Part shown: one piece after another, positions 1-37,757 of the stretch
Layout: every line of letters begins with the position of its first letter
Numbering within the stretch: position 1 is the stretch's first letter
Source: a virus
Taxonomy: Duplodnaviria > Heunggongvirae > Uroviricota > Caudoviricetes
Length of the DNA stretch: 40,315 bases
Virus record (IMG/VR): IMGVR_UViG_2541047797_000007
Strand: one strand, 5' to 3'
The notes under the pieces: generated by a model
Databases searched by the model: none
What the model was told of the DNA's origin: nothing
The model's input: only the letters and a program-made list of their open reading frames with translations
Position numbers and translations under genes: made by a program

Positions 1-516
1 ATGAAATTTAAAAAATGTCTTCTGCCTGTGGCAATGTTAGCGTCATTCACTCTGGCAGGATGCCAGTCAAATGCTGATGATCATGCCGCCGATGTTTATC
101 AAACCGATCAACTGAATACCAAACAAGAAACTAAAACCGTTAATATTATTTCCATTCTTCCCGCAAAAGTTGCCGTAGACAACGCCCAAAATAAACGGAA
201 CGCACAAGCCTTCGGCGCGCTTATTGGCGCTGTCGCTGGCGGTGTTATCGGCCACAACGTCGGGTCTGGCAGCAATTCCGGAACGACGGCAGGTGCAGTT
301 GGCGGCGGAGCTGTAGGCGCGGCAGCGGGTTCTATGGTGAATGATAAAACCTTAGTGGAAGGTGTTTCTTTAACATATAAGGAAGGCACCAAAGTGTATA
401 CCTCCACCCAAGTGGGTAAAGAGTGCCAGTTTACGACAGGTTTAGCCGTTGTTATTACCACGACGTATAACGAAACGCGTATTCAGCCAAATACCAAATG
501 TCCTGAAAAGAGCTAA
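1..516 (+). CDS. Putative outer-membrane lipoprotein with Gly-rich glycine-zipper segment; likely host flank
   Basis: Complete ORF starting ATG at 1. Signal peptide plus lipobox (LAGC) at the N-terminus, then a Gly/Ala-rich hydrophobic stretch (GALIGAVAGGVIGHNVG...GGGAVGAAAG) typical of small glycine-zipper lipoproteins. No phage-like features. Confidence 0.7.
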   Translation: MKFKKCLLPVAMLASFTLAGCQSNADDHAADVYQTDQLNTKQETKTVNIISILPAKVAVDNAQNKRNAQAFGALIGAVAGGVIGHNVGSGSNSGTTAGAVGGGAVGAAAGSMVNDKTLVEGVSLTYKEGTKVYTSTQVGKECQFTTGLAVVITTTYNETRIQPNTKCPEKS

Positions 517-531
517 TAATCAGGAGGAGTC

Positions 532-1071
532 ATGAAGAAAGTTTTTCTTTGCGCCATCTTAGCCTCCTTAAGCTATCCGGCTATCGCCTCATCATTGCAG
601 GATCAACTCTCGGCTGTCGCAGAAGCGGAACAGCAAGGTAAAAATGAAGAGCAAAGGCAGCATGACGAATGGGTCGCGGAGCGCAACAGGGAAATCCAGC
701 AAGAGAAGCAACGTCGCGCAAACGCCCAGGCCGCGGCTAATAAAAGAGCGGCAACGGCAGCAGCGAATAAGAAAGCTCGTCAGGATAAACTGGACGCCGA
801 AGCCACTGCGGACAAAAAACGCGATCAAAGTTATGAAGATGAGCTACGTAGCTTAGAGATTCAGAAACAAAAACTGGCGCTGGCGAAAGAAGAAGCCCGC
901 GTTAAGCGCGAAAACGAATTTATCGATCAGGAACTGAAGCACAAAGCTGCGCAAACCGATGTGGTGCAATCTGAAGCTGACGCAAACAGAAATATGACTG
1001 AAGGCGGTCGCGATCTGATGAAAAGCGTGGGTAAAGCAGAAGAGAATAAATCAGATAGCTGGTTTAACTAA
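532..1071 (+). CDS. Secreted charged coiled-coil protein (signal peptide), function unknown; likely host flank
   Basis: SD AGGAGG 7 nt upstream of the ATG; N-terminal signal peptide (MKKVFLCAILASLSYPAIA); remainder highly charged K/E/R/A-rich; followed by an intrinsic terminator. Confidence 0.65.
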   Translation: MKKVFLCAILASLSYPAIASSLQDQLSAVAEAEQQGKNEEQRQHDEWVAERNREIQQEKQRRANAQAAANKRAATAAANKKARQDKLDAEATADKKRDQSYEDELRSLEIQKQKLALAKEEARVKRENEFIDQELKHKAAQTDVVQSEADANRNMTEGGRDLMKSVGKAEENKSDSWFN

Positions 1072-1143: not shown

Positions 1144-1170
1144 ATTCATAGTGCAGGGTCAAATCATTCC

Positions 1171-1207
1171 CACTCAATTATTTACGGACACCATAACTAA
1201 TTGAGTG
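1171..1207. repeat. Perfect 10-bp inverted repeat (CACTCAATTA / TAATTGAGTG) with 17-bp spacer in the host-prophage junction
   Basis: Read directly from the sequence between the host terminator and the Rz stop; candidate att-arm or recombinase/IHF-binding element, function unproven. Confidence 0.35.
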
Positions 1208-1288
1208 ATAACATTTTTCCAAAGATGAATTTTTCTCGTACCGTTTTATATACCGTCACCGGAAATCAGTACCATGAAAAATGCCATG

Positions 1289-1771
1289 CTATCTGGTCAG
1301 TGTGTCGTACTGTTTTTCGCAGACTCTTCCGGCTTCGGCTGCCCGGTCAGCATACTCTGCCAGTTGTCTGTTTCTCTCGAGAGATTTGCTGAGCACGTCG
1401 GCAAGCAAAACTCCGGTGTCTGCGGCTGACGTCCCAGCGCCGACAATGGCGTTATACTGCCTGAGCTGCTCACGGATGGCAAAGAGTTGTTGCTGCAACC
1501 GGCCAGCGCGAGCGGCAGCATCAAGAGCATCATTGCGCGCCTGGTCGATCCTCTGCTGAGCTTCACGTTCATTGGCCACTTTCTCCTGTTCGTAGTACTG
1601 ACGAACTTTGTCTTCTTCGGCTTTGCGGTCTTCTTCCGCCTGCGCATACCCGGCACCGTACTGGCGACTGCCGTGTATATTCCAGGAAACCACTCCGACG
1701 ATGAACAGAGCAGCAAGCATCAACACAATAAGCATCTGTTTCCAATATGCTTTTACGAATGCCCAGATCAT
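1289..1771 (-). CDS. Rz-like i-spanin (lysis protein)
   Basis: N-terminal transmembrane segment followed by a charged coiled-coil region; 4-nt overlap (ATGA) with the upstream endolysin gene; an Rz1-like lipoprotein ORF is embedded in another frame. Confidence 0.75.
   Translation of the reverse strand: MIWAFVKAYWKQMLIVLMLAALFIVGVVSWNIHGSRQYGAGYAQAEEDRKAEEDKVRQYYEQEKVANEREAQQRIDQARNDALDAAARAGRLQQQLFAIREQLRQYNAIVGAGTSAADTGVLLADVLSKSLERNRQLAEYADRAAEAGRVCEKQYDTLTR
1297..1533 (-). CDS. Rz1-like o-spanin lipoprotein, embedded out of frame inside the Rz gene
   Basis: Internal Met of ORF 1297..1716 gives MMLLMLPLALAGCSNN... : signal peptide plus lipobox Cys, short Pro-rich mature part, wholly contained in Rz. 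Start position inferred. Confidence 0.6.
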   Translation of the reverse strand: MMLLMLPLALAGCSNNSLPSVSSSGSITPLSALGRQPQTPEFCLPTCSANLSRETDNWQSMLTGQPKPEESAKNSTTH

Positions 1772-2397
1772 ATAGCCAGCACCTTACTGGCAGTGACGTA
1801 CCGCGCGCGCCGGTCGTCGATGCCGTTCCGGCCACCATTGATAATCAGAGTTACACGTGCAATATCGCCGGTATACTTCATGCATCCTTTGCTGGCAAAG
1901 AACCACGCCGCGCTACGAGCCGCGTATTCGTCCTGCGCCAGCAGTTCAGGACTCTCCAGCAGGTCAACCTTAAGACCGTTTCCACAGTCACGATAGTTAT
2001 TCAAACCGGTAATCTGGATAAGTCCGCGACCACGGTAATTCCAGCCATCACCAGAGGCATTGTTACCCATGCGTTTGCTGTACACCAGATTTGCGATCGC
2101 GCGCTGGCGCTCGAGTGGCAATGGTGGCTCACCAGCACGGCGGCCCAGTGCGTTAGCCTGTCCCTGGGTGAGACGCCCAGCCCGAACGAAGTTAGCCAGT
2201 CCGGTGACGCTGTAGTTGAAATTTTCCTGCAACCGGTTGAAGCCACCAGACTCATGCCCGACCTGAGCAATAAACATTGCCTGATCTTCGGGTTTGCTGA
2301 TACCAAACTCTTTCATCGCAGAAGTTATATGCGAGAACCAGCGTGCGGCCAGCGCCTCGCTAATACCAGCAGCTCGCTGGAATTGTTTAATCTCCAT
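1768..2397 (-). CDS. Endolysin, glycoside hydrolase family 19 (chitinase-like lysozyme)
   Basis: Protein from MEIKQFQRAAG...: motifs FIAQVGHESGGF and NYRGRGLIQITG are typical of GH19 phage lysozymes. The ORF-track N-terminal extension (to 2628) is rejected; ATG at 2395-2397 gives 209 aa. Confidence 0.8.
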   Translation of the reverse strand: MEIKQFQRAAGISEALAARWFSHITSAMKEFGISKPEDQAMFIAQVGHESGGFNRLQENFNYSVTGLANFVRAGRLTQGQANALGRRAGEPPLPLERQRAIANLVYSKRMGNNASGDGWNYRGRGLIQITGLNNYRDCGNGLKVDLLESPELLAQDEYAARSAAWFFASKGCMKYTGDIARVTLIINGGRNGIDDRRARYVTASKVLAI

Positions 2398-2695
2398 GTT
2401 TAGACCTCGATATTTTGAAAATATGAACAACGTTACCGCGTGTTTTAATAACCGCGGCAAGCATGACAGCGTTGATAATGACCTCAGATAAATCCACAGC
2501 CATTGGCGTGCGTAACCAGATTGCATAGACGACACGAACAGGAATACTTGCCGCAGCAACAATAAGGAAATAAGCAAGCCACCCTCCCCATCTTCGATGT
2601 TGAGAGCCGTTACGCCGGAATGTGACAACGCGAATTGCTATGCCAGTACAAATAACTGCATTGGTGATAAGCAAAAAAAACTCATGCGTTACCAT
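2387..2695 (-). CDS. Small membrane protein in the lysis cassette (holin or antiholin candidate)
   Basis: 102 aa with 2-3 predicted hydrophobic helices; overlaps the endolysin start and the upstream membrane gene. Confidence 0.5.
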   Translation of the reverse strand: MVTHEFFLLITNAVICTGIAIRVVTFRRNGSQHRRWGGWLAYFLIVAAASIPVRVVYAIWLRTPMAVDLSEVIINAVMLAAVIKTRGNVVHIFKISRSKHGD

Positions 2696-3086
2696 CGTCT
2701 TTTCTCCCCGGAATTAACTCGCGTGGATTATCGGAACGGTGATAGAGCCAGATGCCAATACGCACGGCGACAATTGCTGACACGAATGCGCCTGCAGAGA
2801 AAACAATCCCTTTTTCAAAAGAGTCCTGCGTGATGGTAGGGATCAGGCTGGCTATGCCGATAAGAATTGATGCTGCTGGTTTGTAAAAGAGAAGGCCGCA
2901 AAGAAAGCTGAGCATCGACAGGAGCACCCGGCGACGGATGGGGTACTCTACTGCAGAGGTAACAAAAATTACCGCCCCAGCCAAAGCCCCTAAAGCAACC
3001 TCCGGAGGGACACCTGCAATAACCGCAGCAAGAGAACTAACACTAAGCCACTGATTTGAAGTTTCATTGGTTAGTTGGAATGACAT
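2682..3086 (-). CDS. Holin-like membrane protein
   Basis: 134 aa with several hydrophobic helices and a charged C-terminus, immediately upstream of the second membrane protein and endolysin. Confidence 0.55.
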   Translation of the reverse strand: MSFQLTNETSNQWLSVSSLAAVIAGVPPEVALGALAGAVIFVTSAVEYPIRRRVLLSMLSFLCGLLFYKPAASILIGIASLIPTITQDSFEKGIVFSAGAFVSAIVAVRIGIWLYHRSDNPRELIPGRKDDGNA

Positions 3087-3158: not shown

Positions 3159-5621
3159 TCAATTCCCTGTTAATTGCAAAACTTGCTCTTCCAGCTTTTT
3201 AACCCTGCGTCTCATCATCGCAGATTCCAGAATCAGAGCCTCTTCATAACGGATACCGTAACATTCACCAGCCTCGACGGCTTCGCGTACCAGAACCTTT
3301 GTCTGTATAAGTGGGTAAACTCCTGCAGAATGCTCTTCTTCCGTCACATCCCTGTATTCTGCCGGGGTCTCATTCCACTTGTCATAACAGATAAATGCCA
3401 GTCGTGACACATCTATGCCTTCATTCTGAAATACACTGATAACATGCTGCGCAACTGCACCAAAGTGCCATCTTGCTCCGTCTTTACCTTTCACTTCGAT
3501 CCTGTCAAGGTACTGGTATGAAACCCATTCCACTCTTTCCCATGCGTCCAGTATTTTCTCATCAATAACCTCTGGAGCAGTCTTGAAACGCGCATCGGAC
3601 AGCACCGTAAACGCTGACTGGGTAAATCCCCCCGACCATGCACGACCAGCCAACCCAAGAGAATAAGTATTCGTTGTCGATGGTGTCATGGCTGAATCAG
3701 AAAACTGTATATATTCTGAATTTCCAGTAGATATTCGAATATTTCCATTTATTAGCGACATAGTGCCTTTAGTATTATCACTATTGAATAATTTCAATTG
3801 CGAACTTATACCGCCTCCCACAGCCAGAGATACATCGCCTTCAGCAAGCATTCTGAATTTATCTGCAGAAACAAGCGTCTGGTTAGCAAGGTTAAAATAT
3901 TTAACCCACCATTCAAAACGCCCTGACATAGTCCCAACGTACTGACCAAGCGCAGGGACGTGAACAACATTGCTATTTGTAGTGCCGTCTATACTGGAAA
4001 TACCAGTCACCGCTGATGCAGAACTCAGAATATTATTTCTGTCACCCGGATGTTTAATTTCAACAAAGTTCCTGATACACCCTTCCTCGAAGGTAACCAC
4101 GCCGGAAGAACTATACATGGGGAATATTGACGCATAATTACTGCGTGCAGCATCTAAGAAACGAATGGTTGTAGATGTCTGCAGATCTCCTGATTCATTT
4201 TTCCCATCACACCCAGTCATTAGAATATTACTGGCAATATTATTATTTCCCTGAACGGTGACGCCGTGCGCCTGCTTTGCGTCCGATTCAGAGTAATCAA
4301 CCAGCACATCCGAAATCAGGTTACCAGTCCCCTTGCCAACAACTACTGCGGCGTATTTTGGGTTGTTAGCCATTACACTGCTAATGATATTATTCGTTGG
4401 GGCAGTTTCCGTCTCAGTTCCATTGTAAACAACGTGCTGACACTCTTCACCAATAACATTGCTGACAATGTTATATTTTGCTGCTGTTTTAAGTTCCACT
4501 GCACCAAACTGAGGATAATTTCTGGCTATCACACCATCAATTAGCGTATTTTGCGATGAATCAAAAAGCACACAACCTGCTTTTTTATTATTTGCGAACC
4601 CTAAATACTCTCCTCTTATATCTCTAACAATGTAACCTGACGGAATACCATTATCCGGATAAGCGATCAAGCTAAATCCTGGTCCTCGCGTATTTGTAAA
4701 TCTGATATTTTTAACCGATACATCATGGCCACCTGAAAATGACACCTGGTGTCCCTGCACACTATCATCTGATTTATTTCCCATAATTGTTAGCGTACTA
4801 AGCATGCCACCATCGGGCATGTTAAAAACCAGATGATTACCATCTCTGTCATACTGTTTTATCGTTCCCCCACCTGTTCCGTACAAGCCACAACGTGAAA
4901 GAGAAACTAAAGATGTATTGAATACCCCTTCCGGAACAAAAACACTGCTAAACGAATGTAATGATTTTGTAAAAGCATCCTTGTTATCATTTAAGATTCC
5001 ATTTTGAGCTCCAAAATCCTTAATGCTGACACCATCACGCATCTTATCCTGGAACGTTCTGTATACCGCTCCAGAACCATACTGAATAAACCAACCAAAA
5101 CCACCAATAACTCCGGCGATTGCAGCATCGACATAATTACGCATTGAGCGATTATTTACAGCGTCCTGCTCAAGTGATGGATCGGCAAGGTTAGATATTC
5201 TGTTTTGCTTTGCATCGTAATATTTTGCAAGCAAAGATGGTTTCATCAATGCACGTCTGAACCACCCAAAACATCGCTGGATCAGCATCGTCAGGTAGTC
5301 AAATGCATCCTCATGAACTTCGGGGAAAAATTTTCCCTGATTGCGAAGATCAGTCTCCTGCACCACATCAAGCACACGCTCTATCGTGATTCGCCAGCCA
5401 GCAGCAAGCGGCGACGGAAGAACCACTGCACCGCCACTATAAGTTCCCGCCCCTGTTACCGTATAACCAGCATCCAGCACTAGTTTTGTAACGTTACCGT
5501 TAAGGTCAGACACCTGAACAACCAGGTCGGATTTTTTGAAAATACGGAAGGTATACGGAAATGATGTCGTAACGCCGTTACCTGTGTATTCGTTGTGGTC
5601 AACTTCGGTTGAGACCGTCAT
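3159..5621 (-). CDS. Tailspike / tail fiber with conserved N-terminal particle-binding domain, central beta-helix-like region and C-terminal intramolecular chaperone (peptidase S74-like) domain
   Basis: N-terminus MTVSTEVDHNEYTGNGVTTSFPYTF is a conserved phage tailspike anchor motif; Gly/Asn/Ser/Thr-rich central region; C-terminal roughly 150 aa (..LSDARFKT...GARWHFGAVAQ..) resembles the auto-cleaving chaperone domain. SD GGAG upstream of the ATG at 5621. Confidence 0.85.
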   Translation of the reverse strand: MTVSTEVDHNEYTGNGVTTSFPYTFRIFKKSDLVVQVSDLNGNVTKLVLDAGYTVTGAGTYSGGAVVLPSPLAAGWRITIERVLDVVQETDLRNQGKFFPEVHEDAFDYLTMLIQRCFGWFRRALMKPSLLAKYYDAKQNRISNLADPSLEQDAVNNRSMRNYVDAAIAGVIGGFGWFIQYGSGAVYRTFQDKMRDGVSIKDFGAQNGILNDNKDAFTKSLHSFSSVFVPEGVFNTSLVSLSRCGLYGTGGGTIKQYDRDGNHLVFNMPDGGMLSTLTIMGNKSDDSVQGHQVSFSGGHDVSVKNIRFTNTRGPGFSLIAYPDNGIPSGYIVRDIRGEYLGFANNKKAGCVLFDSSQNTLIDGVIARNYPQFGAVELKTAAKYNIVSNVIGEECQHVVYNGTETETAPTNNIISSVMANNPKYAAVVVGKGTGNLISDVLVDYSESDAKQAHGVTVQGNNNIASNILMTGCDGKNESGDLQTSTTIRFLDAARSNYASIFPMYSSSGVVTFEEGCIRNFVEIKHPGDRNNILSSASAVTGISSIDGTTNSNVVHVPALGQYVGTMSGRFEWWVKYFNLANQTLVSADKFRMLAEGDVSLAVGGGISSQLKLFNSDNTKGTMSLINGNIRISTGNSEYIQFSDSAMTPSTTNTYSLGLAGRAWSGGFTQSAFTVLSDARFKTAPEVIDEKILDAWERVEWVSYQYLDRIEVKGKDGARWHFGAVAQHVISVFQNEGIDVSRLAFICYDKWNETPAEYRDVTEEEHSAGVYPLIQTKVLVREAVEAGECYGIRYEEALILESAMMRRRVKKLEEQVLQLTGN

Positions 5622-5725: not shown

Positions 5726-5740
5726 TTACCTTTCGGGTAA
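5726..5740. promoter_or_regulatory. Operator-like site TTACCTTTCGGGTAA (TTACC-N5-GGTAA family)
   Basis: Perfect inverted-repeat half-sites, intergenic between the tailspike start and the plus-strand moron island. Confidence 0.6.
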
Positions 5741-5817
5741 TTTGCAAAACGTGCTGGATAGCAAACAAATTATTTGATACTGTATAAATATACAGTTATT
5801 GCATGGAGAAGATTAAG

Positions 5818-6075
5818 ATGCAGCAGTATCACTATCCACTGGAAGAGGGATTTACCGAAAGGATTCACACGCCGGGAGGCGTCAGGTCACTGGTGGAGGG
5901 ATCGCACTTGATGAAATTACTCCGGGATCTCGATAAGGATGGATTTAATGTCGATGGCCCACTTGCCGAACTGACTGCACTGATTAACTACGTCACCAGC
6001 TCACAGATGTCTATGCAGGATCTGCAAACACATCTCGACTATTGTGCCGAACAATTACGAAAACAAACCAGATAA
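5818..6075 (+). CDS. Small protein homologous to the C-terminal domain of the downstream antirepressor
   Basis: Residues RIHTPGGVRSLVEGSHLMKLLRDL...ELTALINYV...QTHLDY align with Ant C-terminus [24 protein letters not shown]...ELTTMFCYI...QTHAEY. Start chosen at the second ATG (5818), which has SD GGAGAAG; the ORF track starts at 5803. Confidence 0.55.
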   Translation: MQQYHYPLEEGFTERIHTPGGVRSLVEGSHLMKLLRDLDKDGFNVDGPLAELTALINYVTSSQMSMQDLQTHLDYCAEQLRKQTR

Positions 6076-6392: not shown

Positions 6393-7049
6393 ATGAACGC
6401 TCAACTCATCCCCGTATTCAACGGCACTATATCTAACGAAACAGCCCTACTTTGTAATGCCCGCGATCTGCACGCTTTTTTAGGTGTTAAAAAGGTGTTT
6501 GCAGCATGGATTACAAATCGCATATCAGAATACGAATTCATTGAAAATCAAGACTATATTTTGCTTTCCAATTTGGGAAAGCAAACATCTGGTAGAGGCG
6601 GCCACAACCGCAAAGAGTACCACCTCACCCTTGATACAGCCAAAGAGCTGGCGATGGTCGAGCGTAACGAAAAAGGTCGTCAGGTACGACGCTACTTCAT
6701 TGAATGCGAGAAACGTTTAAGACAACAAGAAACAAAAGTGGAGAAGGTCTTGTCAGGCTTCATGCCCGCCATTATGGAGGCGATCAAGCTGGAAGACAAA
6801 AAAGAATACAGTGCCCCGCTGAAGCCCGGCTACCGCAGCCTGATTCATTCGCCGTCTGGTGTTCTCGGCCTGACGGAGAACTCACTGCTGATGAATCTGC
6901 TGAACCAGTTACAGGAAGACGGGCACGACGTATCGGGCGCGGCGGCGGAACTGACCACCATGTTCTGCTACATCGTCGGTGTGAGCAAATGCCTGCGTGA
7001 TATCCAGACCCACGCGGAGTACATCAACGACAAGGCAGGGTTCTTCTGA
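6393..7049 (+). CDS. Phage antirepressor (AntA/AntB-type N-terminal domain)
   Basis: N-terminal region [36 protein letters not shown] matches the AntA antirepressor signature as I recall it; SD GGAG upstream; opposite strand to the surrounding late genes. Confidence 0.75.
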
Positions 7050-7981: not shown

Positions 7982-8007
7982 TTAAAAACAAGGCCGCGAA
8001 AGCGGCC
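7982..8007 (-). terminator. Rho-independent terminator (minus strand) directly downstream of palindrome copy 1
   Basis: On the minus strand: GGCCGC-TTTC-GCGGCC hairpin followed by TTGTTTTTAAC; convergent with the plus-strand terminator at 7921. Confidence 0.7.
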
Positions 8008-8008
8008 T

Positions 8009-8020
8009 GTGACATGTCAC
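8009..8020. repeat. Perfect 12-bp palindrome GTGACATGTCAC, copy 1 of 3
   Basis: Exact match read from the sequence; overlaps the stop of the 8017..8313 gene and abuts the terminator hairpin. Confidence 0.9.
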
Positions 8021-8313
8021 GCTCTTTTTCTGAATGATAGCCATTCGAAAAATGATGACATTCCACCGCAGACAATAGCAAAGATGATCCCACCAAAGAA
8101 GAGAAGGCCAGCCTGCCACCACTCCCACCGCCATACATCCACAGCGCCAACCATACCAACAATCGCTCCAACAAATGGAATATAGCTCACGATGAAAGCA
8201 ATGGGGGCTGCAATTATCCAGTGCAATCCCCACCATGATTCAAGCCCAGCCATAATTGCTGCCAACTGAAAAAGACCAACGACGATATAAACAATGAATC
8301 CTATAGCTTGCAT
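8017..8313 (-). CDS. Small integral membrane protein (98 aa), possible superinfection-exclusion/immunity-type moron
   Basis: Three hydrophobic helices, Trp-rich; sits alone between the ejection-protein genes and the antirepressor island. Function is inference only. Confidence 0.55.
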   Translation of the reverse strand: MQAIGFIVYIVVGLFQLAAIMAGLESWWGLHWIIAAPIAFIVSYIPFVGAIVGMVGAVDVWRWEWWQAGLLFFGGIIFAIVCGGMSSFFEWLSFRKRA

Positions 8314-24583: not shown

Positions 24584-25052
24584 GCAAAGAGTTCATTCCG
24601 GTTATTAACCTGACTGGCTTGTCGTTAAATTGAACAGGTGGAGTGAGCTTTTATTTTGAGCAGTACGGCGTATGGCACATGCGCCGATAGCGGTCTGGAT
24701 ACGTTTAAGGGGCACCCTCACTTGCTCGAGCAAACGAACCAGGTAGCCGGAATGTGCAAGTCGAGCGGTTTTATTCCGCGCACGGGGATTCACCATCCCG
24801 GCGATTCGGTGTGACGCATCGGAAGAGACGAGGGTACAACGATGAGAGCATTTATGGAGCCGCGACAAAGTGTGGCGCCTTAACAGGCTAAGTGCTCTCA
24901 GCGTTGTGGCATTAGCTCAGTTGGACACTTATACAACATGAAGTTACAATGCCTGCATGCGGCGCTTATTCAGAATGGGCACTTCGATAAAACAAGTGCC
25001 ATCAATATTGCGGAAGCCATCAACGCTGGATTTAATGCCATTAAATAACACC

Positions 25053-25064
25053 GTGACATGTCAC
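25053..25064. repeat. Perfect 12-bp palindrome GTGACATGTCAC, copy 2 of 3
   Basis: Exact match; followed on the plus strand by the hairpin and T-run at 25069..25096, i.e. the same module as copies 1 and 3 but in the opposite orientation. Confidence 0.9.
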
Positions 25065-25068
25065 AAAC

Positions 25069-25096
25069 AGCCAGCCGATGAGCTGGCTTTGTTTTA
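25069..25096 (+). terminator. Intrinsic terminator on the plus strand (antisense to the late operon)
   Basis: Hairpin AGCCAGC-CGATGA-GCTGGCT followed by TTGTTTTAT. Confidence 0.6.
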
Positions 25097-25138: not shown

Positions 25139-26614
25139 TTAAGCATAGGGATCGTAATCTGTGATGGCCTTGCCTTGCTGGTTCTGCTGCCCGGGAATTC
25201 GCAGACGCTTCGACACAGGAAAAGCAAACGTCAGCAGTAGCGCATCGCCTTTACCCGGCGAACGCCCAAGCCGCTCCTTGATATCTTCCTTCGGTTCGAT
25301 AACGATTTTACCGTCCACGCGAACTTTGTACTCTGCCGCCGACAGGTCGTCTGCAGTTTCCTGGTCATCCAGCATGCCGCCCAGCCTCAGCCATGTCTTA
25401 CATGAGTTGAACATCTCCCCACGCTTGTTGAGCATCTGCGGGTCAGTAGACGCGCCACCGAACGGAACAAGTTGCCATGTACGACCCCAGCCGTCACCGA
25501 TTGACTTCAGACCAGTTCCGTAACCGAAGTCGATGAACACTGCGTCAGCCTGGTACTGGTCTTCAAAGTCAGCGATACGCTTCGCCATAATCAGATCGTC
25601 AGTGGTCTTGTTGCCAGTCCACAGCACCTTACTGTGCAGCCCCTGCCGCAGGTATATCACAGCGTCATCAACGCCTGAGTATGCCGGGTCAACGCCGATT
25701 ATCACCGGAGCATGTGCAACCTGCGCAGCGGTGACCACCCGTTTCATTGCCTCGTCAGTAAGTCCGGTAGGGATAAACTGCAATTCAGATGCATCCGGGA
25801 ATATGCCGCGCACACGGATTTTAACGAAGTCGCTGTCTTCCCCGTAGTCATCAACCCATTTCTGCAACTGCTGTTTGTTGGTGCCTTCCACCGTCCGGCT
25901 GTCAATCTGCGCAGTTTTCCAGCGGTGTTTATATTTGCGGAAACATTCGCGGAAACGTCCGGTATTACGCGTCGGGTTTCCGAACGCCACCCAGATAATC
26001 TCAGTGTCTTCGTCCGTTAGCGCACCCTCGGCAACTTCCCACACCAGATCCGCAATGTTCGACGCTTCATCGAATACCACGATGATGCGTTTGCGCTCGT
26101 TGTGTAGTCCGGCGAATGCCTCAGTGTTGTGCTCAGACCAGGGTATTGCGTCAGCTCGCCACCGCTTGTCGTGTCCAGGATCATTGCTGTACATCGCGGT
26201 AGCGGTACAGGTAAACCAGTCTTTCGTGATAGCAAGGTTCGACCACTTGATAATTTCCGGCCAGGTCTTCGTTCGTAGCTGGTTGTCGGTGTTGGCGGTC
26301 ACCACGACCTTACAATCCTCGCAAGTGGACATGCCCCAGTTGATCAGCATTGAGATGAATGCGGATTTACCAATACCGTGACCCGAAGCACGTGCCAGCA
26401 TAAGCGGCTGATAGCGCGTCTCTGGATTCTGCAGGTGATCACGTATCTCTCGGAACGCATCAGCCTGCCACTTACGTGGGCCGGTAGCATGTGCCAGTTC
26501 AGTCCCCTCTTCCCCCCACGGGAACGCATAGAGGGCATAGCCAAGCGGATCGTGAGTGAACCCTGCAATATCCTCGATCAACTGCTCTTCAGGAGATAAC
26601 GCTGTATCTGTCAC
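25139..26614 (-). CDS. Terminase large subunit
   Basis: Walker A-like motif (LARASGHGIGKSA) near the N-terminus and an acidic-residue nuclease-like C-terminal half; GTG start overlapping the terS stop. Confidence 0.85.
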   Translation of the reverse strand: MTDTALSPEEQLIEDIAGFTHDPLGYALYAFPWGEEGTELAHATGPRKWQADAFREIRDHLQNPETRYQPLMLARASGHGIGKSAFISMLINWGMSTCEDCKVVVTANTDNQLRTKTWPEIIKWSNLAITKDWFTCTATAMYSNDPGHDKRWRADAIPWSEHNTEAFAGLHNERKRIIVVFDEASNIADLVWEVAEGALTDEDTEIIWVAFGNPTRNTGRFRECFRKYKHRWKTAQIDSRTVEGTNKQQLQKWVDDYGEDSDFVKIRVRGIFPDASELQFIPTGLTDEAMKRVVTAAQVAHAPVIIGVDPAYSGVDDAVIYLRQGLHSKVLWTGNKTTDDLIMAKRIADFEDQYQADAVFIDFGYGTGLKSIGDGWGRTWQLVPFGGASTDPQMLNKRGEMFNSCKTWLRLGGMLDDQETADDLSAAEYKVRVDGKIVIEPKEDIKERLGRSPGKGDALLLTFAFPVSKRLRIPGQQNQQGKAITDYDPYA

Positions 26615-27207
26615 TGATTACCATCCTGACGTTCTTTGAGTCGCTTCCTGGCTGCTGCTATGCGATCAGCAATTGTCACATTCACATTAACATCCAGACG
26701 TTCTTTGAACGCGTTGACATCAACATGCTTACCAATCAGCTCAAGGTTCTTCACCTTGTCAGGCCATTTAATTTTTTTGAGGATTGTCTCTATCGAATCC
26801 TCGTTCATGTTCATGATGGTCGATGACAGATCAAAGCCACTAAGCGTAGTGCGCCAGATTTTCGGCCACTCACGGATTGGTTTAAGGCTCCCATCGTCGT
26901 TGAGGATGTCGATCACGTCCATCTGGTCGATCTCCACCAGGCGCATGAGAACGTAATCAGCACTGACGCGCATTCGTTTGTTGCGCTCCTCCATCAACTC
27001 GGCAATCCGTTTTTGAATGCGTTCATCGCGCATCATGACGCTGGCTTTAACTGCCGCTGTATTTGGGGAGAATCCTGCGTTAATCGCTGCCTGAGTCTGG
27101 TTTTCAGGCGTTTTGATGTATGACTGGCAATAAGCCTCCTGCATTGCTGTTAGTGGCTTAAATTGCGTTGATTTGCGTTTATAGGTTTTAGGTTCAGCAG
27201 GCATCAT
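26611..27207 (-). CDS. Terminase small subunit
   Basis: Directly upstream of and overlapping the large subunit gene. Start placed at the tandem internal ATG codons (27207) because the track N-terminal extension runs through the upstream terminator hairpin. Confidence 0.7.
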   Translation of the reverse strand: MMPAEPKTYKRKSTQFKPLTAMQEAYCQSYIKTPENQTQAAINAGFSPNTAAVKASVMMRDERIQKRIAELMEERNKRMRVSADYVLMRLVEIDQMDVIDILNDDGSLKPIREWPKIWRTTLSGFDLSSTIMNMNEDSIETILKKIKWPDKVKNLELIGKHVDVNAFKERLDVNVNVTIADRIAAARKRLKERQDGNQ

Positions 27208-27249
27208 AACCACCGTGGTAATAGTTACCGTTGTGGTAATAGTACCATG

Positions 27250-27276
27250 CAAAATAAAGCCGCCATAGTTGGCGGC
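27250..27276 (-). terminator. Intrinsic terminator immediately upstream of the packaging/late operon
   Basis: Minus strand: GCCGCC-AACTAT-GGCGGC hairpin followed by TTTATTTTG, about 40 nt upstream of the terS start. Confidence 0.65.
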
Positions 27277-27316
27277 AGTATCCAAAACCGTCAAATTCAT
27301 CATGCATAATCTACTC

Positions 27317-27328
27317 GTGACATGTCAC
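27317..27328. repeat. Perfect 12-bp palindrome GTGACATGTCAC, copy 3 of 3
   Basis: Exact match; overlaps the stop of the 27325..27672 gene and lies 40 nt upstream (minus strand) of the terminator at 27250..27276. Confidence 0.9.
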
Positions 27329-27672
27329 ACTATTAATTTCGTTTCATGCCAGCCTTTAGTCACCCAGCATTGCGAGTCACCATTACACGGGCATGAATTA
27401 ACTGGAACTCTCTCGCCGCACTTACCGCAACGTTTTCTGCTGATCGATTTTATACGCCCGCGCACACGTGCATCATCCTGGCGGATCAGCAGCGCGATGT
27501 ACTCGGCCATTTCATAGGGATCGCGACCAGGGCGCCGGGCGGCGCAGTTCCGCGCCAGCATTTCCTGCTCCTGCTTATCCAGCACCAGTTCAATTTTGCG
27601 CTCACCGGCGGCGGACTGCCGAGCGCGCTGCGCGGCTTTGCGTTCTGCGGGGGATTTAGCCACGAATCGCAC
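27325..27672 (-). CDS. Candidate late-gene regulator: basic N-terminal region plus C-terminal Cys-rich zinc-ribbon-like motif
   Basis: C-terminus CGKCGERVPVNSCPCNGDSQC; basic N-terminus (RFVAKSPAERKAAQRARQ) loosely resembles small RHH/CopB-like DNA-binding proteins. Occupies the position held by Q in lambdoid phages. GTG start; start uncertain. Confidence 0.45.
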   Translation of the reverse strand: MRFVAKSPAERKAAQRARQSAAGERKIELVLDKQEQEMLARNCAARRPGRDPYEMAEYIALLIRQDDARVRGRIKSISRKRCGKCGERVPVNSCPCNGDSQCWVTKGWHETKLIV

Positions 27673-27778
27673 TCCACGCCAGATTGATTAATGACTCCCA
27701 GGTAATATAAACCCGGATACCAGCAGCCAGGCCGAAACCAATCACCATGGCATAAAGCAGAGCGTTGCACTTGTTCAT
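27656..27778 (-). CDS. Possible 40-aa single-pass membrane peptide (MNKCNALLYAMVIGFGLAAGIRVYITWESLINLAWSAIRG)
   Basis: ATG overlaps the stop of the DUF551 gene by one nucleotide (TGATG), and a GGAGG SD sits 6 nt upstream. Not in the ORF track (below the length cutoff); translated by hand. Confidence 0.4.
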   Translation of the reverse strand: MNKCNALLYAMVIGFGLAAGIRVYITWESLINLAWSAIRG

Positions 27779-28320
27779 CACTTCACCTCCTGCTGCTGTG
27801 CTGCTGGCATTTCACGCCAGTGCGTAACTGAGTGCGGATCCGGATATTCGGTGCCATCATCCCAGCGATTGCCATTCCACATTGCAGACCACATCTCACC
27901 GTCTTCATACATGACCATTACCGGAATTAACTTATCCGGCATTCTCTCACTACAGCTTATCCAACCATCCGGAATTACCGGAGTTGGTCCATCGAATTCG
28001 GGCATGTCAGGACCTTTTCTGATAGCTTTAGCCAGCTCCAGCGGGTCATCGTAAAGCCAGTCGCCAGTTTGTGGGTGATTTGCTTCTGCAAGCTGCGCAG
28101 CCCATTCAAGACCATCTTTTTGACCTTGGAGATAATCAAGCGGCAACTCTTCATGATTACTTGCAGGTTCGGCACTATCAGCTTCGCGCCGCTTCTGTAG
28201 CTCTGCTGCCATTGCTCTCACGACTTCAACTGGTGCCCTTGCAGCAAACTCTATGTTGGTGATCAGCTCATTAAGATATTGCTCGCTGGGATACTGTTTC
28301 TTATTGGTAATAGTGGTCAT
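27778..28320 (-). CDS. DUF551-type phage protein
   Basis: C-terminal segment WISCSERMPDKLIPVMVMYEDGEMW...VTHWREMP matches the DUF551 pattern (W..SERLP...THWMPLP) as I recall it. Confidence 0.6.
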   Translation of the reverse strand: MTTITNKKQYPSEQYLNELITNIEFAARAPVEVVRAMAAELQKRREADSAEPASNHEELPLDYLQGQKDGLEWAAQLAEANHPQTGDWLYDDPLELAKAIRKGPDMPEFDGPTPVIPDGWISCSERMPDKLIPVMVMYEDGEMWSAMWNGNRWDDGTEYPDPHSVTHWREMPAAQQQEVK

Positions 28321-31365: not shown

Positions 31366-32162
31366 GCTTCAGGGCTGTTCCAGTGCGGAACGTTGTTATC
31401 AGGTAATGTTGATTGCTTCTGTCTGCTAATCTGCAGCCGCCTTGCCAGCTTCTGCTCCCACTGTGCCTGATGGTATGCCTTACCCTCAGCCATCCAGTAA
31501 ATTCTGAACTCTGCAAGTTCCTGTGCCGTTGGCAGACTGTCCAGGTAGATCCCCTGCAATGAGCTTTTCCGAAGAAAGTCATCTGATGGTTGCCATTGTT
31601 CATGCATGACAAATTTGCCTAATTGCCCTGGCCCACCAGGAGGAACAAAGTTATTCATCACGGCGTTGTTTGCGCCGGGGTCATGAGGCACAGAATCCCC
31701 GGTTTTTGTCCTGCTCTCCCTCTCTTGGTTAAATGACTGGTTATATGACTGGTTCTGGATCCCGTTTTTGGGATCATTCAACATCCCGTTTTTGGGATCA
31801 TTCAACATCCCGTTTTTGGGTATATTCCCGTTTTCGGGAACATTACCGTTTTCGGGTTCATTACAGCCTTCTAGGTTGCCTTTAATGTTCCCGTTTTTGG
31901 TTATATTAAGAGAGAAAACCCGCACTCTTTTTGTCGCTCCCTTTCTCTCTCCGGTATCTGAAATAAGCCCCATTTTCATGAGCGATATAAGTCCGGCCTG
32001 CACGGTTTTTTTATTCAGGCAAGTGTCTTTAACGAGGCGTTCTATGCTGGGGTAGCAGAGGTTATATTCATCGGCTCTGTCAGCCATCGAGAGCAGTATG
32101 AGCTTTAATGACGAGCTACCTGGATCTGTCTCCCAGGCCCAATCTGTTGCATGTCTGCTCAT
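31347..32162 (-). CDS. Replication initiator O-like protein with internal iterons
   Basis: N-terminal HTH-type replication-protein domain; the central part is encoded by tandem DNA repeats (protein repeats NGNVPENGNIPKNGMLNDPKNGMLNDPKNG); overlaps the P-like gene. Confidence 0.75.
   Translation of the reverse strand: MSRHATDWAWETDPGSSSLKLILLSMADRADEYNLCYPSIERLVKDTCLNKKTVQAGLISLMKMGLISDTGERKGATKRVRVFSLNITKNGNIKGNLEGCNEPENGNVPENGNIPKNGMLNDPKNGMLNDPKNGIQNQSYNQSFNQERESRTKTGDSVPHDPGANNAVMNNFVPPGGPGQLGKFVMHEQWQPSDDFLRKSSLQGIYLDSLPTAQELAEFRIYWMAEGKAYHQAQWEQKLARRLQISRQKQSTLPDNNVPHWNSPEAWEDFL
31755..31910. other. Candidate origin of replication: about 6 iterons with core CCCGTTTTTGGGA inside the O-like gene
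   Basis: Direct repeats at about 31761, 31785, 31809, 31827, 31846 and 31890 with 18-24 bp spacing, each containing a small dyad (TCCCG..GGGA). Confidence 0.7.
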
Positions 32163-37457: not shown

Positions 37458-37757
37458 GTGAGAAAGTTAAGCCGACTTGAAAAATATCACATGAATAAGG
37501 TTTCAATGCGCAGTCCGTCAAAGATTGTCGCCGTTACTCCTGCGGCGATAGAGATCGAAAAACGCGCGATTGAAAGAGAGAAAAAAGGGCAATTCCGCAT
37601 TGCCGCTCACCTTTGGCTTCAGTGTATGGATGTTGCTTCTGGTGATGTTGAACGTGCAAGGATCGCGGTTCGCAGGGGCCAATGTATCACAAAAGGTAAC
37701 GGCCTTCGCCGTGGCGACTATAGCGGCATAGGATGTTGTGTGGTGGTTTATGACTAA
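37458..37757 (+). CDS. PerC/ANR-like transcriptional regulator candidate
   Basis: Segment GQFRIAAHLWLQCMDVASGDVERARIAVRRGQC resembles the PerC family signature; GTG start in the track, true start uncertain. Confidence 0.45.
   Translation: MRKLSRLEKYHMNKVSMRSPSKIVAVTPAAIEIEKRAIEREKKGQFRIAAHLWLQCMDVASGDVERARIAVRRGQCITKGNGLRRGDYSGIGCCVVVYD

Follow-up and report, generated by a model that had tools for sequence, protein, structure and literature searches.

A Predicted Ribbon-Helix-Helix/Zinc-Finger Protein and Its Putative matS-like Palindrome as a Conserved Module at the Early/Packaging Boundary of an Epsilon15/phiV10-Type Phage

Introduction

The lambda Q system (qut/PR'-tR', together with Q21 and Q82) places the regulator as the last early gene, a DNA site right after its stop codon, and then a terminator and the late genes. 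A similar arrangement occurs in the 40,315-nucleotide (nt) stretch of viral DNA analyzed here (IMG/VR record IMGVR_UViG_2541047797_000007; hereafter the window), which megablast and annotated relatives assign to an epsilon15/phiV10-type temperate podophage of the genus Uetakevirus, in an E. coli prophage setting. At this locus, a gene for a 112-residue Cys-rich protein is followed by a 12-bp palindrome, an intrinsic terminator, and the small terminase subunit gene terS. Q-lambda also contains a zinc-binding motif. Unlike Q, the protein here shows no Q-family sequence match and is less than half Q's size. Its perfect palindrome lies outside any conserved promoter and lacks a sigma-dependent pause element, and each genome carries several sites, located at operon 3' ends. 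The family also coexists with Q in N15 and phiKO2.

The lambda N system provides a second parallel. Its nutR element lies between cro and tR1, and here, too, the recognition element occupies a short gap between stop codon and terminator inside a transcription unit. An arginine-rich N-terminal helix is also shared with N. The systems differ in that nut acts as an RNA hairpin (boxB), and no boxA-like element was seen here.

At the level of the DNA site, the closest counterpart is matS, whose 13-bp consensus GTGAC[AG]N[TC]GTCAC is the target of the ribbon-helix-helix (RHH)-containing protein MatP and was absent from 500 prophages surveyed (PMC3603311). The half-sites of matS and of the phage palindrome, GTGAC and GTCAC, are identical. 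MatP, the E. coli Ter macrodomain organizer, carries its RHH core after a basic helix, as predicted for the phage protein, and the MatP-matS complex is the top structural match of the model described below. Unlike matS, the phage site spans 12 bp rather than 13, its 2-bp spacer being one base shorter, and a zinc finger stands in place of MatP's four-helix bundle (MatP_N) and coiled coil (PF06303, PF17414); a protein of 112 residues leaves no room for the bundle. Homology to MatP was not detected by hhalign (probability 0.3%) or Pfam, and the MatP homologues recovered for the comparison were all near-identical E. coli proteins, too uniform for a diverse profile. The 13-bp matS GTGACRNYGTCAC was not found in the window. 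The resemblance to matS is striking, but it is not family membership.

Three further groups invite comparison. RHH repressors, such as P22 Arc and Mnt, CopG, and the antitoxins TacA and ParD, share the small size and, probably, the fold class and a palindromic DNA target. Their operators are found at promoters, usually ahead of the protein's own gene, whereas the conserved site here lies at the gene's 3' end beside terminators, and a conserved predicted zinc finger is appended. TraR/DksA C4 zinc-finger proteins, which bind at the RNA polymerase secondary channel and whose TraR-type members are common in phages and plasmids, have a long helix followed by CxxCGxxIP...G...C, which the predicted C-terminal half here resembles only marginally. 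Their pattern is CxxC-X17-CxxC, whereas the third and fourth Cys are spaced differently here, and the corresponding helix could not enter the secondary channel because it forms part of the predicted RHH dimer core. Lastly, the Ogr/Delta/B activators of P2-like phages are proteins of ~72 residues with a C-X2-C-X22-C-X4-C pattern and a TGT-N12-ACA site near -55, features that are not found at this locus.

The Gene and Its Palindrome

Comparative analysis indicates with high confidence that the predicted RHH-zinc-finger protein and a putative cognate matS-like palindrome make up a conserved module at the early/packaging boundary. Because the gene-palindrome pairing recurs in many phages, this module is likely to be a real control element. 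The window contains three exact palindrome copies (at 8009, 25053, and 27317), while chance predicts ~0.04 matches to GTGACNNGTCAC and 0.002 to the exact 12-mer. In epsilon15 and phiV10, the identical 12-mer occupies the same three positions within diverged flanks. In a set of 34 loci drawn from various bacterial species, with protein identities of 52-88%, GTGAC-N2-GTCAC lies 10 nt or less from the gene end in 22, ten of which have the TGA stop inside the palindrome; at eight further loci, the site is 1-4 kb upstream in the same operon.

The same arrangement reaches much more distant homologues. At ~30-45% protein identity, a gene-end site accompanies N15 gene 46 and phiKO2 gp45 (GTGACTGGTCAC), a P2-like Yersinia phage homologue (TTGTGACGCGTCACAA), and homologues on IMG/VR contigs (GTGACAGGTCAC). 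In the reverse test, 39 of the 80 IMG/VR loci with the 14-mer GTGTGACATGTCAC encode the family, and the stop codon falls inside the palindrome in 38 of these 39. The combination of motif and gene extends over Enterobacterales, Vibrio, and metagenomic phages, down to ~30% protein identity. Since GTGAC-N2-GTCAC travels with the gene, usually overlapping or abutting its stop codon, the palindrome is very probably the cognate site of the 112-residue protein, and the protein-site pairing is well supported.

The pattern of variation suggests how the site would be read. The half-sites are invariant, while the central dinucleotide varies (AT, AC, GC, TG, AG, CT), the pattern expected of a symmetric DNA-binding dimer rather than of an RNA hairpin. 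Recognition of duplex DNA is further indicated by the absence of compensatory changes in the sequence-invariant arms and by the predicted RHH fold. With such arms, and with a 2-nt loop being impossible, an RNA hairpin is retained as a minor possibility only; folding of the region gives a 5-bp stem with a 4-nt loop only. A pac or cos site was also rejected. The phiV10 record starts inside the palindrome, yet this is simply the base after the gp55 stop, each genome has three copies, and the N15 sites lie far from cos.

Several occurrences of the motif lie elsewhere. Vibrio phage K233 has its sites away from the gene end, two of them 19 nt upstream of a start codon, one being that of terS. N15 contains exactly three GTGAC-N2-GTCAC sites (28550, 33237, 39269), with one on the gene 46 stop, one inside repA, and one between the repA operon and the antirepressor (gene 32-30) unit; the intergenic site is 24 nt upstream of a TTGACG hexamer preceding that unit. 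The 12-mer also appears in several further phage contexts, likewise conserved, where the retrieved DNA contains no family gene (IMG/VR loci L051, L055, L065, L083, L084, L105, and others), and some of these read as a Shine-Dalgarno (SD) sequence plus ATG (GAGGTGTGACATGTCAC). The 12-mer may have further uses, or some family-free occurrences may be coding coincidences.

Family and Predicted Fold of the Protein

The PHROG 536 profile ("transcriptional regulator") aligns with the full length of the 112-residue protein (E 5.5e-54; residues 5-114 against positions 3-114/115), which is 83-88% identical to the epsilon15, phiV10-type, and TL-2011b proteins. The epsilon15 record remarks on the likeness of gp49 to N15 gp46, and members of this epsilon15 gp49/phiV10 gp55/N15 gp46 family are labeled only "hypothetical" or "transcriptional regulator". 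The family numbers 738 at 90% clustering, reduced to 151 representatives at 50%, and its members occur in Enterobacterales, Vibrio, and Aeromonas hosts among the matches listed. A search for related loci with the single distant protein P0220 returned 3 loci only. Related gene copies are present in 663 of 5,426 complete E. coli genomes (~12%), where their only label is "hypothetical protein". Searches with the 112-residue protein gave no Pfam family at E <= 0.1, no NCBIfam match, and no PDB sequence match. In the literature library searched, no paper or experiment dealt with the family, with the 12-mer, or with how epsilon15-like phages control their late genes.

An alignment of 53 diverse members reveals four conserved elements: an N-terminal basic helix ERKxxQRxR, in which R8 is invariant and R13 almost so; a strand with alternating hydrophobic residues, vEvxL; a pair of helices, PYxxxEYxxLI; and a zinc motif CxKCGxxLPxxCxG...GDxxCW. 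The AlphaFold2 model is confident (pLDDT 91), and its best fold matches are the MatP-matS complex, followed by RHH repressors and antitoxins. A Foldseek search of the PDB with this model gave nothing significant, and a BFVD fold search recovered nothing beyond a fragment from this family; a few family members show weak RHH Pfam matches. Together, the model and alignment point to a probable RHH DNA-binding domain after the basic helix in the N-terminal half. The C-terminal half is predicted to form a long helix followed by a Cys4-type zinc finger, whose kinship to TraR/DksA is only possible. Matches of the CxxCGxxLP...G...C region to TraR and YbiI are marginal (E 0.04; hhalign probability 77%), the distal Cys spacing differs, and no family member scanned matches the Pfam TraR model (PF01258).

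A sequence-only reading of this DNA had proposed a Cys-rich zinc-ribbon regulator of 115 residues here. The predicted fold is that of a DNA-binding-type protein, with no homology to Q, Ogr, or other known late regulators. The open reading frame (ORF) is present at 27672..27325 from an alternative GTG start, as that reading had it, but its length is likely 112 residues. The GTG at 27663 is probably the true start, favored by a GGAG 8 nt upstream and by the 112-residue length of nearly all homologues listed.

Coupling of the Palindrome to Terminators

Each of the three copies in the window is found at the edge of a transcription unit, shortly before a terminator and in the direction in which that terminator acts. 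Copy 3 follows the regulator gene, 40 nt before a hairpin GCCGCCA-ACTA-TGGCGGC (27276..27259) that runs into TTTATTTT. Copy 1 abuts a minus-strand terminator (8008..7991), and at copy 2, after terL, the hairpin has its U-tract on the plus strand, where the reverse gene p03, truncated in the window, also lies. Terminator-coupled palindromes at unit ends occur in epsilon15 and phiV10 as well. Across all loci, a strict terminator rule found a terminator nearby at 25 of 56 sites, and in 23 of these 25, the palindrome is 0-41 nt upstream in the terminator's direction.

Two side observations concern these terminators. On the minus strand (27200-27335), the predicted RNA fold pairs GAGUAGAUUAUGCAUGAUGAAU upstream of the terminator with the U-tract and the sequence beyond it, which gives a long stem enclosing the terminator hairpin (z -3.1 versus shuffles). 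This stem might modulate termination or simply be an A-tract/U-tract pair. Near copy 2, phiV10 reverse gene p03 and gene p04 are replaced in the window by a 116-bp remnant (24928-25043), while the palindrome and terminator at 25053-25088 are kept despite this loss. A 10/12 promoter-like match, TGGACA-17-TACAAT (24922-24950, plus strand), points at them and could yield a short terminated RNA, antisense to nothing obvious.

A Tentative Mechanism and Its Alternatives

These features suggest, tentatively, that the module is a portable delay switch providing site-dependent control of read-through at adjacent terminators, a reading that is preferred here but falls short of an even chance. The 112-residue protein would bind GTGAC-N2-GTCAC as a symmetric dimer, as its co-occurrence with the site suggests, with one site overlapping the stop codon of its gene, 40 nt ahead of the terminator of that operon, and two abutting the terminators of the terminase unit and the structural operon. 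Once accumulated, the protein may act on RNA polymerase passing the palindromes and permit read-through of the adjacent terminators. Early transcription would then be linked to terS-terL and later units. Such a "regulator-site-terminator" switch would follow a logic like that of lambda Q/qut-tR' or N/nutR-tR1 while being unrelated to Q and N in sequence and using a double-stranded DNA palindrome for recognition. With both a strong terminator and the adjacent site conserved, conditional read-through is more economical than redundancy.

A more specific and unlikely form of this idea is a transcription-boundary factor, in which an RHH domain with matS-type half-site specificity would be joined to a TraR-like zinc finger touching RNA polymerase. 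There is a similarly small chance that such a factor is loaded from the duplex-DNA palindrome upstream of intrinsic terminators and decides whether polymerase passes. If true, it would represent a DNA-site-dependent antiterminator unrelated to N, Q, RfaH, and put RNA, with possible cross-talk to host MatP/matS.

The location of the locus fits the read-through reading. The region is the border between the early-right (replication/nin-like) operon and the packaging genes, and the order of regulator, palindrome copy 3, terminator, and terS, noted in the sequence-only reading, is complete on the minus strand and kept in epsilon15, phiV10, and many prophages. As had also been suggested, the gene occupies the usual late-regulator position, closing the early-right operon immediately ahead of terS. 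It is likewise the last early gene before terS in epsilon15-like, Klebsiella, Proteus, and Providencia prophages. Neither the phiV10 nor the epsilon15 record has an annotated Q- or Ogr-type regulator, and none was matched among the window proteins scanned. No good sigma-70 promoter was found between the terminator and terS in the window.

Other observations weigh against read-through as the means of late-gene switching. N15 and phiKO2 encode a lambda-Q-like protein as well as a family member, and the P2-like Yersinia phage has both a family member (gp13) and a 72-residue regulator (gp51) at the Ogr position, so the family does not act as a late switch in general. The gene-site-terminator module of P2-like Xenorhabdus prophages is convergent with the portal and terminase genes, and read-through there would be antisense. 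In other prophages, the module precedes ninB, DUF1367, an HNH endonuclease, or an integrase. Some Proteus, Providencia, Vibrio, and N15-like sites have no nearby terminator and lie just before a ribosome-binding site, a few sites are intragenic, and at the terL end, the hairpin precedes the palindrome in the late direction. The 34 loci share no -10 or pause element at a constant spacing after the palindrome. Weak promoter-like hexamers accompany operator-like sites ahead of terS, the structural unit, and the tailspike, and the late units may therefore have their own promoters. The early-left operon also carries a PerC-family activator gene (37458..37757, plus strand; PF06069, 29.6 bits), whose product may be a rival candidate for late-gene activator of this phage group. 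Finally, RHH proteins are most often repressors.

The last point, supported by the fold matches, also bears on a doubtful alternative in which a palindrome-bound dimer would act as a roadblock or insulator, physically halting RNA polymerase at unit boundaries in either direction. Such a block would reinforce terminators, prevent collisions or antisense read-in at convergent junctions, and exert negative feedback on the protein's own complete mRNA through the site covering its stop codon. A palindromic site acts symmetrically, and sites do occur where transcription units converge, both in epsilon15-like phages (copies 1 and 2) and in P2-like prophages, as well as at the end of the N15 repA operon, facing the antirepressor unit. 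The tight stop-codon overlap would make stalled transcripts non-stop, and coexistence with Q, whose modified polymerase ignores terminators, is also consistent with a block. However, polymerase mostly meets the site before the terminator, which would leave the conserved strong terminator redundant, and a pure block needs no conserved zinc-finger domain. Moreover, a block before terS in Vibrio phages, or upstream of the protein's own gene in Proteus prophages, would shut off the packaging genes.

Promoter evidence is relevant both to the comparison with Q and to another unlikely explanation. As the absence of a conserved -10 or pause element after the palindrome indicates, this is not a Q/qut-type promoter. 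A Q-like promoter model was rejected on this ground and because 9/12 promoter-like matches occur at chance level (4 versus 3.5 expected); of the Q-type features, the terminator is present here, but the promoter-like match is only a weak 9/12. Alternatively, the palindrome could be a classical operator or activator site of its own or a neighboring promoter, with the terminators incidental and the late genes transcribed from their own repressor-controlled promoters, possibly aided by the PerC-like protein encoded at 37458..37757. GTGACA resembles a -35 hexamer, with a weak match GTGACA-18-CATGAT in the window and GTGACA-17-TAAATT at the equivalent place in epsilon15. The N15 site 24 nt upstream of a TTGACG -35, the Vibrio and Proteus sites in short leaders just before genes, and the operator-like sites ahead of every unit would also suit promoter-proximal regulation. 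Yet no -10 is conserved at a fixed distance across loci, and a transcript from the palindrome would start inside or just before the terminator. Any terS start also lies ~110 bp downstream of the palindrome center, and the other two copies, 1 and 2, are at 3' ends with no co-directional gene nearby downstream.

The matS-like half-sites raise one more explanation, which is very unlikely. In this case, the protein would be a MatP-type DNA organizer that bridges sites into loops matching the terminase and structural units, for example for packaging or supercoil isolation, or a MatP/matS mimic that interferes with the host MatP-matS system in lytic growth, transcription not being its direct target. 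Besides the shared matS half-sites, it has in its favor that terS-terL is enclosed exactly by copies 2 and 3 and the structural operon by copies 1 and 2, and that the gene is often beside terminase genes. Enterobacterales, Vibrio, and Aeromonas, the hosts seen, are groups that have MatP. Against this stand the lack of hhalign homology to MatP, the missing four-helix bundle and coiled coil, a spacer of 2 bp rather than 3, and the absence of 13-bp matS from the window. Bridging cannot be the core function, since many phages carry a single site at the gene end.

The protein has no match to any of the three Q families (Antiterm, Phage_antitermQ, Phage_antiter_Q; Pfam E <= 0.1), consistent with the earlier remark that it does not resemble lambda Q. 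An Ogr-like activator was rejected because the protein has no Pfam match, a Cys spacing of C-X2-C-X6-C-X-C-X7-C, and a different site form. The earlier Q-like reading of late control is only partly supported, by the anatomy, the predicted DNA-binding type of the protein, its very probable palindromic site, and the gene position; against it stand the absence of Q homology and of a conserved promoter.

The literature search found no account of late-gene switching in epsilon15/phiV10-type phages. Through this analysis, the family gains a fold prediction, an exact candidate target in DNA, and a delimited set of sites; the family's predicted fold, the matS-type half-sites, the joint travel of gene and site, and their placement at terminators are new here. 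If the protein does govern terminator passage from a DNA palindrome, a compact and portable timing module would be added to known antitermination systems, with possible use as a synthetic-biology part. Given the half-site identity with matS, the Ter-macrodomain recognition code of the host may have been taken over by phages or may be a target of their interference. The presence of matS-like half-sites in phages contrasts with the reported exclusion of true matS sites from prophages (PMC3603311).

Gene Organization at the Boundary

The window is inverted relative to the reference records, which places the genes under study on the minus strand (Table 1). Their order there is a PAPS-reductase-like gene, the DUF551 gene, the 40-residue peptide gene, the Cys-rich ORF, the palindrome, the terminator, an operator-like site, terS, and terL. 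The region is 100% identical to the E. coli strain 4/1-1 chromosome.

Table 1. Coordinates of genes and sequence elements at the early/packaging boundary and of the other palindrome copies in the window
Feature	Position	Strand	Evidence or remark
DUF551-domain gene, 180 aa, penultimate block of early-right (nin-like) operon	27778..28320	-	Pfam PF04448, E 8e-17
40-aa single-pass membrane peptide gene	27656..27778	-	phrog_5525, E 8e-30 over 40/40 positions; coding sequence in EC.W1-9
Probable RHH + zinc-finger protein gene, 112 aa	27325..27663	-	epsilon15 gp49/phiV10 gp55/N15 gp46 family
Palindrome copy 3, GTGACATGTCAC, putative cognate binding site	27317..27328	.	contains TGA stop of 112-aa gene
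Intrinsic terminator, 7-bp GC-rich stem, 4-nt loop, TTTATTTT tail	27251..27276	-	starts 40 nt downstream of palindrome
TTACC-N5-GGTAA operator-like site between terminator and terS	27225..27239	.	matches epsilon15 sites annotated as repressor sites
Small terminase subunit gene (terS), ~198 aa from ATGATG	26611..27207	-	Pfam PF03592 (Terminase_2), E 1.6e-29; phrog_51
Large terminase subunit gene (terL), 491 aa	25139..26614	-	homology to phiV10 gp2, epsilon15 gp2
Palindrome copy 2	25053..25064	.	4 nt from hairpin 25069-25088; same arrangement in phiV10, epsilon15, prophage loci
Palindrome copy 1	8009..8020	.	contains TGA stop of 98-aa membrane protein gene 8313..8017; conserved in phiV10 (19493), epsilon15 (19517)

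The 40-residue membrane peptide with a perfect SD, coupled to the DUF551 gene in the sequence-only reading, is present, and its match to phrog_5525 covers the entire peptide. The start ATG shares bases with the DUF551 TGA (TGATG), GGAGGT lies 6 nt upstream, and the peptide's gene overlaps the following 112-residue gene by 8 nt, making it translationally coupled at both ends. For terS, the ORF can be extended to 27303, although homologue starts in TL-2011b, EC.W1-9, and epsilon15 indicate that the real start is probably ~27207/27204. The phiV10 record instead gives terS from an upstream start (41..715, 225 residues), by which part of the terminator becomes coding; the downstream start (~198 residues) used in the other three appears more plausible.

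The 98-residue membrane protein gene is the last gene of the structural operon. By homology to phiV10, all late genes from terS through the lysis genes lie on one strand, and holin, endolysin, and Rz (~3074..1162) follow on that strand directly after the tailspike gene (5621..3159). The lysis cassette is therefore distal and away from the regulator, as the earlier reading had placed it.

Other Elements in the Window

Ten TTACC-N5-GGTAA inverted repeats, against ~0.04 expected by a rough estimate, occur at 5726, 6107, 7224, 24569, 27225, 30451, 30513, 32844, 33556, and 33618, and match the sites annotated "repressor" in the epsilon15 record. They are located in the immunity region and ahead of the nin-like, terminase, structural, antirepressor, and tailspike units, and the prophage repressor may accordingly silence every unit directly.

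A LexA-box-like sequence, CTGTATAAATATACAG, lies at 5780-5795 beside an operator-like site, ahead of a 90-residue ORF (5803..6075, plus strand) and also of an AntA-type antirepressor gene (6393..7049; PF08346), which suggests an SOS-controlled antirepressor. At four other loci (L010, L011, L015, L047), a comparable LexA-box promoter driving a umuD-like gene is found as an insertion between the palindrome and terS. In the replication-gene region, two tandem 24-bp copies at 31769-31812, each with the hairpin TGGGATCATTCAACATCCCG, could be origin iterons.

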